Positions 3,284 to 57,872 of a stretch of 64,000 nt of DNA are shown here, one piece after another. The stretch lies in the NCBI RefSeq assembly GCF_041886205.1, contig NZ_CP169029.1, one strand, 5' to 3'. A model generated the notes under the pieces. The model saw only the letters and a list, made by a program, of their open reading frames with translations. It did no database searches and was not told the origin of the DNA. The stretch's first letter is position 1, and each line of letters begins with the position of its first letter. The DNA comes from Escherichia coli (lineage in GTDB: Bacteria; Pseudomonadota; Gammaproteobacteria; Enterobacterales; Enterobacteriaceae). The position numbers and the translations under genes were made by a program.

Positions 3284-3359
3284 TGGCTCCTCTGACTGGA
3301 CTCGAACCAGTGACATACGGATTAACAGTCCGCCGTTCTACCGACTGAACTACAGAGGA
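3284..3359 (-). tRNA. asnT: tRNA-Asn
   Basis: Reverse complement reads TCCTCTGTAGTTCAGTCGGTAGAACGGCGGACTGTTAATCCGTATGTCACTGGTTCGAGTCCAGTCAGAGGAGCCA, 76 nt, canonical E. coli tRNA-Asn. Confidence 0.95.
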
Positions 3360-4350: not shown

Positions 4351-4440
4351 GGAGAGATGCCGGAGCGGCTGAACGGACCGGTCTCGAAAACCGGAGTAGG
4401 GGCAACTCTACCGGGGGTTCAAATCCCCCTCTCTCCGCCA
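4351..4440 (+). tRNA. serU: tRNA-Ser
   Basis: GGAGAGATGCCGGAGCGGCTGAACGGACCGGTCTCGAAAACCGGAGTAGGGGCAACTCTACCGGGGGTTCAAATCCCCCTCTCTCCGCCA, long variable arm, 3' CCA. Confidence 0.95.
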
Positions 4441-12666: not shown

Positions 12667-13881
12667 TTAGAACTGGTAGACTAAGCCCACAGCAACGATG
12701 TCATCGGTAGCGATGCCGTTGTTTGCGTAGAAGTCATCGTCGTTGTCCAGCAGGTTGATTTTGTAATCAACATAGGTGGACATGTTTTTGTTAAAGTAAT
12801 AGGTTGCACCAACCTCAACGTATTTAACCAGATCTTTATTGGTATAATGATAATTACCATTGTTGTACATTTCTTGACCACCTAAATCCTTACCTTTAGA
12901 TTGGAGGTAAGCAATTGAAGGACGCAGGCCGAAATCAAATTGGTACTGAGCAACAACTTCAAAGTTCTGAGTTTTGTTAGCGATACCACCGCCGCCAAGT
13001 TTCCCATCGGCTGAATGAGAGTCGCTGCTACCATAAGCGGTCATATTGCGAGTCTCTGCATACATTGCTGCTAAATATACATTGTTGGCATCGTATTTAG
13101 CACCAACAGTCCACGCTTCTGCAGTACCACCACCTGCATAGCTATTACCATAGAAATGATTGCCATCTCCATACCCACGAGCAGCTTGGTTATTGGAACG
13201 GTCAGAATTAGAGTAAGCAGCACCCAGACTTAAACCGAAGTCGAAGTCGTAGGAAGTAGACATACCGAAACCATCGCCATTTTCTTTAGCAAGGCTACGG
13301 CCATCTCCGCTGCCAGATCCTTCTTGGCCAAAGAGACTGTCACTGCCACTTTCATTATTACTCTGATATTGCAGCGCAAAGTTCAAGCCATCAACCTGAC
13401 CAAAGAAGCCATTGTTACGGTAGGTTGCAACACCGTTGGTACGACCGTTCATGAAATTGTCGGCACCAGCATAGGTATCGCCACCAAATTCTGGCAGCAT
13501 ATCGGTCCATGCTTCGATGTCATATACGACACCGTAGTTACGACCATAATCGAAAGTACCATTCTGACCAAAACCTAAACCTGCGAAAGCCAGACGGGTA
13601 GCAGAGTTATCTCCATCGCCTTCTGTGCCATTTGCTTGCAGGTTGTATTCCCACTGACCATAACCAGTGAACTGGTCAGCGATCTGAGTTTCACCTTTGA
13701 AACCGATACGGGCATATGACTTGTCGCCATCGCTGCCGGCATCATCAGAGAAGTAGTGCAGGCCCGCTACTTTTCCGTACAAATCCAGTTTATTACCATC
13801 TTTATTATAGATTTCAGCCGCATTTGCTGCGCCAGCAACTAATAACGCCGGGACCAGCATTGCCAGAACTTTTCTTTTCAT
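12667..13881 (-). CDS. yedS: General-diffusion outer-membrane porin of the OmpC/OmpF family, intact (404 aa from MKRKVLAML)
   Basis: Signal peptide [21 protein letters not shown], Gly/Asp/Asn/Tyr-rich beta-barrel composition, C-terminal ...VGLVYQF; SD AAGGGA before ATG at 13881. Confidence 0.85.
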
Positions 13882-14192
13882 TATGTATTCCCTTGTGATT
13901 ATAATCTTCATGAATATATCAATAAGTGCCGTTATCCAAAAAAAAGCACATTTGGATACTATTCTATGAAGTTCATTTTATTTTAAGGATTACATGTAAC
14001 AAATGTATTTAAAAGATTTCAAAATGTTTCTAATCTATTTAATATAATTCAGGATTATGAATTCTAAATATAAATATTCATGAAAATTATAAATGTATAT
14101 CAATATGTTATGAGTTGAGCGGAAGCATAGGGGGTATCAATGATTGTTGCGCCAAACGGCTGGTGTGATCACGCGCACATTAATGAAGGCAT

Positions 14193-14285
14193 AAAAAAAA
14201 GCCGGCATCATGCCGGCCCAAAAAATATAAACAAGACGATAAAAGGCTAATAACGGAAGCATCATGACACAGAATAATAAAAAGG
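14193..14285 (-). ncRNA. rseX: Candidate small RNA (RseX-like) ending in a Rho-independent terminator
   Basis: Minus strand: 7-bp stem GCCGGCA/TGCCGGC (14201-14217) followed by an 8-nt T-run. Upstream segment CGUUAUUAGCCUU is complementary (with G-U pairs) to the ompC RBS region as recalled. Position between yedR and yedS matches where rseX is reported in K-12. 5' end not determined. Confidence 0.45.
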
Positions 14286-14447
14286 TATAATTGTAATCAG
14301 TGCTAATATATTGATTGAATGAATTAATAAAGCCGATCTCAAAGATAAATAAAATCGCTCAAAACGATTTTTCCTGTATTCACTGCCGTTGCGCAAAAAT
14401 TATCTATTTGTTCAAAAAATGAGTGAGTCTTGACTGGCTCATCCAAT

Positions 14448-14813
14448 GTGGAAAAATGTGACTTTTATCACATAATAGTACTAAGTCTGAATTTTCCGGG
14501 TTATCTCAAAATGGAATACGGTTCGACAAAGATGGAAGAGAGACTCTCTCGCAGCCCTGGCGGCAAACTGGCTTTGTGGGCTTTCTATACATGGTGTGGC
14601 TATTTCGTCTGGGCAATGGCGCGTTACATCTGGGTGATGAGCCGGATCCCCGATGCCCCCGTGTCGGGATTTGAAAGCGATTTAGGTTCTACCGCGGGAA
14701 AGTGGTTAGGGGCACTGGTCGGCTTTTTATTTATGGCTCTGGTCGGGGCATTGTTAGGTAGCATTGCCTGGTACACTCGGCCTCGTCCCGCACGTAGCAG
14801 ACGCTATGAATAA
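14448..14813 (+). CDS. yedR: Small inner-membrane protein YedR (121 aa from GTG; alternative starts TTG 14430 or ATG 14511)
   Basis: ...MEYGSTKMEERLSRSPGGKLALWAFYTWCGYFVWAMARYIWV... two hydrophobic segments; start codon uncertain. Confidence 0.8.
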   Translation: MEKCDFYHIIVLSLNFPGYLKMEYGSTKMEERLSRSPGGKLALWAFYTWCGYFVWAMARYIWVMSRIPDAPVSGFESDLGSTAGKWLGALVGFLFMALVGALLGSIAWYTRPRPARSRRYE

Positions 14814-14852
14814 AAACTGCTAAGGTTGCGACTCTTTGGCAACGGAGCGCGT

Positions 14853-15548
14853 ATGGACTTACAACACTGGCAGGCACAGTTCGAAAACTGGTTGAAAAAC
14901 CATCATCAGCACCAGGACGCGGCCCATGACGTGTGTCATTTTCGTCGCGTCTGGGCTACGGCACAGAAGCTGGCGGCAGATGATGACGTCGATATGCTGG
15001 TGATTTTAACCGCCTGTTATTTCCACGATATTGTGAGCCTGGCGAAAAATCATCCGCAACGGCAGCGTTCTTCAATCCTGGCGGCAGAAGAGACGCGTCG
15101 CCTGCTCCGTGAAGAGTTCGTGCAATTTCCGGCGGAGAAAATCGAGGCCGTTTGTCATGCCATTGCCGCTCACAGTTTCAGCGCGCAAATCGCCCCCTTA
15201 ACAACGGAAGCTAAAATCGTCCAGGATGCGGATCGGCTGGAAGCCCTGGGGGCGATTGGCCTGGCGCGCGTGTTTGCCGTTTCAGGGGCATTGGGCGTGG
15301 CGCTGTTTGATGGCGAAGATCCGTTCGCACAGTATCGCCCGCTTGATGATAAACGCTACGCGCTGGATCATTTCCAGACTAAGTTGCTGAAGCTACCGCA
15401 AACCATGCAAACCGCAAGAGGCAAGCAGCTGGCGCAGCACAACGCGCATTTTTTAGTCGAGTTTATGGCGAAGCTCAGTGCCGAACTGGCGGGGGAGAAT
15501 GAAGGTGTCGATCACAAGGTGATAGATGCGTTTTCACCCGCGGGCTGA
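14853..15548 (+). CDS. yedJ: HD-domain phosphohydrolase YedJ (231 aa)
   Basis: [34 protein letters not shown]... HD motif; ATG at 14853 verified. Confidence 0.9.
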
Positions 15549-22618: not shown

Positions 22619-22705
22619 AACACATCAGATTTCCTGGTGTAACGAATTTTTTAAGTGCTTCTTGCTTAAGCAAGTTTCATCCCGACCCCCTCAGGGTCGG
22701 GATTT
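22619..22705 (+). ncRNA. dsrA: DsrA small regulatory RNA
   Basis: AACACATCAGATTTCCTGGTGTAACGAATTTTTTAAGTGCTTCTTGCTTAAGCAAGTTTCATCCCGACCCCCTCAGGGTCGGGATTT, matches DsrA including terminator stem-loop and T-run. Confidence 0.93.
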
Positions 22706-53798: not shown

Positions 53799-53874
<76 letters not shown>

Positions 53875-53927
53875 GTTTAAAAGACATCGGCGTAAGCGGA
53901 TGTCTGGCTGAAAGGCCTGAAGAATTT

Positions 53928-54001
53928 GGCGCGTTAACAAAGCGGTTATGTAGCGGATTGCAAATCCGTCTAGTCCGGTTCGACTCCGGAACGCGCCTCC
54001 A
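53928..54001 (+). tRNA. cysT: tRNA-Cys
   Basis: GGCGCGTTAACAAAGCGGTTATGTAGCGGATTGCAAATCCGTCTAGTCCGGTTCGACTCCGGAACGCGCCTCCA. Confidence 0.95.
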
Positions 54002-54013
54002 CTTTCTTCCCGA

Positions 54014-54100
54014 GCCCGGATGGTGGAATCGGTAGACACAAGGGATTTAAAATCCCTCGGCGTTCGCGCTGTGCGGGTTCAAGTCCCGCTCCGGGTACCA
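54014..54100 (+). tRNA. leuZ: tRNA-Leu
   Basis: GCCCGGATGGTGGAATCGGTAGACACAAGGGATTTAAAATCCCTCGGCGTTCGCGCTGTGCGGGTTCAAGTCCCGCTCCGGGTACCA. Confidence 0.95.
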
Positions 54101-57856: not shown

Positions 57857-57872
57857 TGTGATTTGCATCACA
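57857..57872. promoter_or_regulatory. CRP-binding site upstream of azuC
   Basis: TGTGATTTGCATCACA, perfect TGTGA-N6-TCACA palindrome about 85 bp upstream of the azuC ATG. Confidence 0.55.

Follow-up and report, generated by a model that had tools for sequence, protein, structure and literature searches.

A K-12-identical rseX small RNA gene upstream of an intact yedS-type porin gene in Escherichia coli

Introduction

RseX has reportedly been known since 2006, from the work of Douchin et al. in JBC. A passage in PMC7648144 describes it as a 91-nt RNA that represses OmpA and OmpC. The native RNA long remained undetectable and has never been detected in wild-type K-12; on northern blots of K-12 RNA, a band of 91 nt accompanied by a band of ~75 nt appears only when H-NS is removed, and the signal is stronger in hns stpA mutants (PMC8313858). 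According to the legend of Fig. 5B in the same study, "RseX and surrounding areas" are enhanced in RNA-seq of the hns mutant. RseX represses an ompA-gfp fusion as well as fimB and ihfB, and it binds the latter two (PMC8313858). RseX also represses fepA, a process that depends on Hfq, RNase E, and the loop of the terminator and apparently involves no direct pairing (PMC11979758). In K-12, the sRNA is silent and the neighboring yedS is also dead. Joint activation of the two genes is therefore best sought in strains with an intact neighboring porin gene.

Here, we analyzed a stretch of 64,000 nucleotides of E. coli DNA (NCBI RefSeq assembly GCF_041886205.1, contig NZ_CP169029.1; hereafter referred to as the window), in which the original prediction had placed an RseX-like sRNA at 14193..14285. 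The identity, anatomy, conservation, and in silico pairing of the RNA come from the present analysis, while its transcript, Hfq dependence, target repression, and H-NS silencing are taken from the literature on K-12.

Results

Identification of rseX in the window

The Rfam scan of the whole window gave a match to RF01401 (rseX) at 14194..14283 on the minus strand, which spans model positions 1–94 of 94 (full length) with a score nearly twice the gathering score (97.7 bits versus 50; E = 3.2e-12). In a permissive local scan, RF01401 was still the sole significant match. The minus strand from 14283 to 14193 reads UUUUUAUUAUUCUGUGUCAUGAUGCUUCCGUUAUUAGCCUUUUAUCGUCUUGUUUAUAUUUUUUGGGCCGGCAUGAUGCCGGCUUUUUUUU and is identical at every one of its 91 positions to rseX of K-12 MG1655 (b4603), and the flanks differ from those of K-12 at few positions only. 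In K-12, b4603 is annotated at NC_000913.3 2033649..2033739, between drpB and the yedS pseudogene. The original prediction had correctly named the yedR–yedS spacer as the K-12 site of rseX, and the copy in the window lies in the same spacer, divergent from drpB (formerly yedR) and co-directional with yedS. E. coli strain ECONIH5 matches the window at 100% over 1.5 kb.

Since the covariance model, the K-12 alignment, and the conservation of the pairing region (described below) are all positive, the feature is rseX itself and not merely RseX-like. The proposal of an RseX-like sRNA was thus sound, with the same neighbors as in K-12, and the proposed boundaries were correct within two bases. The gene is already known, and a K-12-identical copy is ordinary. 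The features of the locus, together with other RNA genes in the window, are listed in Table 1.

Table 1 Features of the rseX locus and other RNA genes in the window
Feature	Position	Strand	Basis
rseX, gene of the 91-nt Hfq-dependent sRNA RseX	14193..14283	-	RF01401, 97.7 bits; 91/91 identical to K-12 b4603
Rho-independent terminator, expected Hfq-binding 3' module; stem nt 65-85, UGA loop, U tail	14193..14219	-	Terminator scan, fold, sequence only
Predicted target-pairing segment, RseX nt 29-51 (CGUUAUUAGCCUUUUAUCGUCUU)	14233..14255	-	Computed pairing and conservation
rseX promoter region; candidate -10 TACAAT at 14295..14290, poor -35	14284..14330	-	Inferred from the annotated 5' end
yedS-type (ompS1-like) porin gene, intact, 404 aa	12667..13881	-	NCBIfam OmpC subfamily, 542.7 bits (cutoff 484)
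drpB (formerly yedR), divergent from rseX	14511..14813	+	NCBIfam div_DrpB_YedR, 151.9 bits
DsrA sRNA gene	22619..22705	+	Rfam RF00014, 102.5 bits, full length
tRNA genes (five in the window)	3287..3359; 4351..4437; 53799..54097	-; +; +	

Architecture of the RNA and its promoter

The terminator reads GGGCCGGCA-UGA-UGCCGGCUU on the minus strand and is followed by a U run, with GCCGGC and 8 T just as had been described. It consists of a 9-bp stem with 6 G-C pairs and a 3-nt loop, and it is the sole terminator-like site given by the terminator scan in 13700..14900. The earlier observation that no coding gene lies upstream of it also holds: no gene on the minus strand ends there, and the nearest upstream gene, drpB, is on the opposite strand and divergent. 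In the centroid fold of the 90-nt RNA, the terminator hairpin is the sole helix. Among homologues, the stem shows one compensatory GC-to-AU change in Citrobacter with 97% of the alignment cells paired, and the U run varies from 7 to 8 T among strains. The loop is reported to matter functionally in the repression of fepA (PMC11979758). A second helix, the 5' hairpin of the Rfam model (nt 14–38), was rejected because the centroid fold lacks it and covariation does not support it, sequence changes there only breaking pairs; the 5' 64 nt are therefore treated as essentially open.

The only ORF overlapping the terminator is a frame of 42 codons at 14265..14137 (MMLPLLAFYRLVYIFWAGMMPAFFYAFINVRVITPAVWRNNH), from which a small hydrophobic protein could be made instead of or besides a regulatory RNA. 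The frame does exist and its product would be hydrophobic, but hydrophobic codons are the default of T-rich DNA. No Shine-Dalgarno sequence precedes the frame, which moreover runs through the terminator, so that the 91-nt RNA would contain no stop codon. The variation between 7 and 8 T in the U run shifts the frame after the terminator; C. amalonaticus lacks the ATG (CATTATC), and in E. coli EC958 and NCTC9022 the codon is displaced. The ORF was thus rejected as a gene for want of a Shine-Dalgarno sequence, a stop within the transcript, and a conserved frame or start, and we regard a protein product as extremely unlikely.

A simple sigma-70 scan gave no promoter on the rseX strand. A sigma-70-type promoter of rseX is supported by 5' RACE, and an H-NS motif lies at −42..−32 (PMC8313858). 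The promoter region shows 74–90% identity between loci. The GC content of the spacer containing rseX is 27–36%, versus about 50% in its flanks. Such an AT-rich spacer is consistent with what would be expected for a region bound by H-NS.

The plus strand, opposite to rseX, has a near-consensus sigma-70 promoter-like site at 14264..14291 (ATGACA-16-TATAAT, 11/12 matches), overlapping both RseX nt 1–20 and the −10 region of rseX. Its −35 element is the complement of the invariant UGUCAU in RseX. This site could interfere with rseX or could be a spurious promoter within the AT-rich spacer bound by H-NS. It was rejected as the drpB promoter, which has been mapped elsewhere, between the old GTG-1 and ATG-22, corresponding to ~14448..14511 in the window (PMC7648144).

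Predicted pairing with ompC, ompA, and yedS

Pairing was computed with a home-made approximation, in which short local duplexes are combined with the cost of opening both RNAs, and the results were compared with a background of 68 other initiation regions from the window and with shuffled targets. This short-duplex model replaced unrestricted RNAduplex-type folding of RseX against 90-nt leaders, which was discarded for giving pseudo-duplexes of 70–90 nt with no discrimination.

The string CGUUAUUAGCCUU, proposed beforehand as the pairing sequence, is present as RseX nt 29–41. The ompC string given with it, AGGGUUAAUAACA, is real and corresponds to K-12 ompC −12..+1. In the pairing proposed between them, 12 of the 13 positions of the ompC string pair with RseX, two of them as G-U pairs as originally claimed, and the last position is an A/C mismatch. 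In the short-duplex model, this helix gains two further pairs, and the best interaction with ompC has 14 contiguous pairs, three of which are G-U, between ompC −14..−1 and RseX nt 30–43, and spans the Shine-Dalgarno sequence, with a hybrid energy of −16.3 kcal/mol and a total energy of −8.2 kcal/mol. The length of this helix is matched by 1.5% of the 68 initiation regions and 2% of the shuffles; the total energy is unremarkable, being reached by 13% of the background. The best interaction with ompA, between ompA −22..−8 and RseX nt 37–51, also covers the Shine-Dalgarno sequence, and its total energy in the same model (−11.5 kcal/mol) is matched by 1.5% of the 68 initiation regions and 3% of the shuffles. 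Each of the two Shine-Dalgarno regions thus beats ~97–98% of the controls on one measure each. The exact registers with ompC and ompA are those that we infer from this model; the RseX–ompA site has not been mapped experimentally (PMC8313858). Of 5370 genomes, 5356 have an ompC leader with at least 99% identity.

In the computation, no pairing of RseX above background is found in yedS −60..+30, where 63% of the background regions and 89% of the shuffles do as well. This computation gives no support to the suggestion that the adjacent porin is itself a potential target of RseX.

Distribution and conservation

A single chromosomal copy of rseX is present in 4879 of 5426 complete E. coli genomes (90%), the remaining genomes (about 10%) carrying none. 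This agrees with the secondary losses published for S. dysenteriae, S. flexneri, and E. coli HS (PMC3318445). A pattern scan with one genome per species located rseX in E. albertii, E. whittamii, three further Escherichia lineages, and Citrobacter amalonaticus. These homologues outside E. coli score 70.9–95.2 bits with RF01401, all above the gathering score. The pattern fixed nt 34–46 and the terminator stem, and hence the agreement of the non-E. coli sequences at these positions is partly by construction; nt 29–33 and 47–50, which the pattern did not fix, are conserved too. Four divergent E. coli alleles, retrieved by BLAST and not by the pattern, show no variation in the segment CGUUAUUAGCCUUUUAUCGUC. 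Salmonella, for which Rfam-based annotation reports RseX (PMC3632133), was not retrieved by the pattern scan, and the distribution given here is that in Escherichia and C. amalonaticus.

The RefSeq/PGAP annotation carries no rseX feature in ECONIH5 or in any of the 30 E. coli records among the matches listed for a 151-nt query, and among the records compared, rseX is annotated only in the curated K-12 MG1655 record. Because these annotations omit the gene, annotation-based surveys will miss rseX, though 90% of complete E. coli genomes carry it.

We aligned the whole drpB–porin spacer of 12 loci and calculated the mean pairwise identity of each segment. The identity is 56% in the spacer upstream of the rseX promoter, 74% in the promoter, 77% in RseX nt 1–11, 91% in nt 12–50, 95% in the terminator, and 72% in the 140 nt downstream of rseX. 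Taken as ranges, the RNA core (91–93%) and the terminator (95–98%) stand out against the spacer on either side (56–78% upstream and 72–91% downstream). Within nt 12–50, the variation is confined to nt 21–28. The block of nt 29–51 is invariant in the E. coli alleles found by BLAST and nearly so in other genera, and both the ompC- and ompA-pairing sites fall in a block that is invariant across the Escherichia lineages and C. amalonaticus loci examined. The conservation expected of a pairing region is thus borne out, with nt 29–50 being the most conserved unpaired part of RseX in the E. coli alleles, five other Escherichia lineages, and C. amalonaticus.

Polymorphisms in the yedS–yedR spacer (13882..14531) have been used as biomarkers of the host source of E. 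coli (PMC11267920), and the most variable stretches of this spacer flank rseX.

The pattern of conservation also bears on whether rseX is a decaying, functionless remnant that is carried along with a horizontally acquired porin island and never expressed. Such a remnant would account for the failure to detect RseX in wild-type K-12 and for silencing by H-NS/StpA as observed for foreign DNA (PMC8313858), as well as for the secondary losses in S. dysenteriae, S. flexneri, and E. coli HS (PMC3318445) and the absence from about 10% of complete genomes. However, a core and a terminator that are nearly invariant beside a flanking spacer falling to 56–78% identity are a signature of purifying selection, and a TraDIS study found that rseX is required for competitive growth in S. 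Typhimurium (PMC3632133). A functionless remnant is highly improbable in the light of these observations.

The adjoining porin gene and drpB

The porin gene is on the same strand as rseX, 311 nt beyond the terminator, and it is intact (Table 1), as had been stated, with a score above the cutoff of the OmpC subfamily. PGAP labels the yedS-type porin gene of ECONIH5 as ompC. yedS is listed as ompS1 (PMC2731931), and Salmonella ompS1 encodes a quiescent porin, kept silent by H-NS and StpA unless LeuO relieves the silencing (PMC4264507). The yedS gene of K-12 is a pseudogene with six in-frame stops.

The order drpB–rseX–porin is constant across the loci, 11 others sharing it with the window. In each of the 11 loci with sequence extending far enough, rseX lies 310–320 nt upstream of the porin gene on the same strand. 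An sRNA gene directly beside a porin gene, with conserved linkage, is accordingly found in all loci.

The porins at this locus differ considerably from the 404-aa protein of the window: the identity is 52–55% in E. coli EC958, NCTC9022, ECA64, and SCPM-O-B-8794, 83% in G1/2, 81–85% in other Escherichia species, and 63% in C. amalonaticus. By contrast, the porin start codon is preceded by ~170 nt (13882..14050 on the minus strand) that are 95–98% identical in 12/12 loci, Citrobacter included, a level of conservation well above that of the porin coding sequence and of the remaining spacer. This leader contains OmpR-box-like repeats (GAAACATTTTGAAATC...TACATTTGTTACATGT), a promoter-like TTGTTA-16-TAAAAT, and a hairpin (UAUCCAAA/UUUGGAUA), the loop of which has a U run of variable length.

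The constant position of rseX ahead of the porin raises a different reading, in which the rseX promoter and terminator act in cis as an insulator or attenuator before yedS, and the trans effects seen on over-expression are secondary. In agreement with this, rseX is on the same strand as the porin gene and about 310 nt upstream of it in 11/11 reaching loci despite widely differing porin alleles, and native RseX is undetectable in the wild type (PMC8313858). However, the strength of the terminator and the discrete 91-nt RNA that builds up in hns mutants speak against it, as does repression in trans by plasmid-borne RseX, with point mutations relieving the repression of fimB and ihfB (PMC8313858). 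Furthermore, the single-stranded segment, for which an insulator would have no need, is the most conserved part of the RNA, and past rseX the porin gene is preceded by a conserved promoter-like region of its own. We therefore consider a mainly cis role very unlikely.

On the other side of the spacer, the start of drpB is given as 14532 by PGAP (93 aa, MEERL...), while the experimentally supported ATG is at 14511 (100 aa, MEYGSTK...); the true start is the ATG formerly annotated as codon 22 (PMC7648144). A perfect CRP-type palindrome, TGTGA-N6-TCACA, lies at 14457..14472 on the plus strand, with 0.06 such sites expected per window, and its half-sites are invariant in 12/12 loci, Citrobacter included. 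The palindrome falls within the experimentally mapped interval of the drpB promoter (PMC7648144). A second perfect CRP-type palindrome is found at 57857..57872.

Discussion

The observations above are very probably explained as a whole by rseX being a stand-alone transcription unit, the product of which is a 91-nt, Hfq-binding, trans-acting sRNA silenced by H-NS/StpA. A weak sigma-70-type promoter would drive the unit, and the transcript would consist of 64 nt of A/U-rich, largely unstructured RNA followed by the strong Rho-independent terminator, to give the 91-nt Hfq-binding RNA. The conserved single-stranded segment (approximately nt 29–51) is predicted to act in trans by pairing with ompC −14..−1 and ompA −22..−8. 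Pairing at the Shine-Dalgarno sequences would block ribosome binding and, together with Hfq, lower the levels of the ompC and ompA mRNAs. According to the literature, fimB and ihfB are further base-pairing targets, the repression of fepA, through the terminator loop, Hfq, and RNase E, is of an unusual kind, and rseX is silenced in wild-type cells by H-NS with StpA as a backup.

A broader role may be considered for the locus. The variable porin beside a nearly fixed rseX and porin leader, the silencing of Salmonella ompS1, and the likeness to micC–ompN hint that rseX and the adjoining porin gene may form one co-silenced module. In an extended form of this idea, rseX and the yedS/ompS1-type porin gene would constitute a single H-NS/StpA-silenced porin-exchange module; lifting of the silencing, perhaps by LeuO, as for Salmonella ompS1, or by OmpR at the conserved boxes, would lead RseX to remove OmpC and OmpA and spare the co-induced porin. 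We regard this extended form as rather unlikely. If it is true, the exposed parts of the porin would be free to diversify (52–85% between alleles), with rseX and the 170-nt leader staying fixed. K-12 could then never show the module, its yedS being a pseudogene, but a strain with an intact porin could.

Compared with known systems, the closest relative is RseX of K-12 itself (b4603), which shares all 91 nt, the neighbors drpB/yedR and yedS, the terminator, and a nearly identical upstream region. The context differs in that yedS is a pseudogene in K-12, whereas the porin gene of the window is intact, encodes 404 aa, and is a different allele (85% DNA identity to the K-12 pseudogene). MicA and RybB, which repress ompA/ompC, share with RseX both targets and mode of action, namely Hfq-dependent pairing at or near the initiation region. 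However, these two sRNAs are driven by sigma-E, whereas sites for sigma-E or OmpR are absent at rseX, which H-NS silences instead (PMC8313858), and their sequences are unrelated to that of RseX.

In genomic arrangement, the counterparts are micC–ompN and micF–ompC, where, as in rseX–yedS, an Hfq-dependent porin-repressing sRNA is encoded beside a different porin gene. MicC, like RseX, targets ompC. Both micC and ompN are quiescent and de-repressed in hns mutants (PMC5745476), and loss of H-NS has the same effect on RseX and the region around it (PMC8313858). The sequences of MicC and MicF have no relationship to that of RseX. Moreover, micF–ompC and micC–ompN are divergent pairs, whereas rseX and yedS are arranged in tandem on the same strand.
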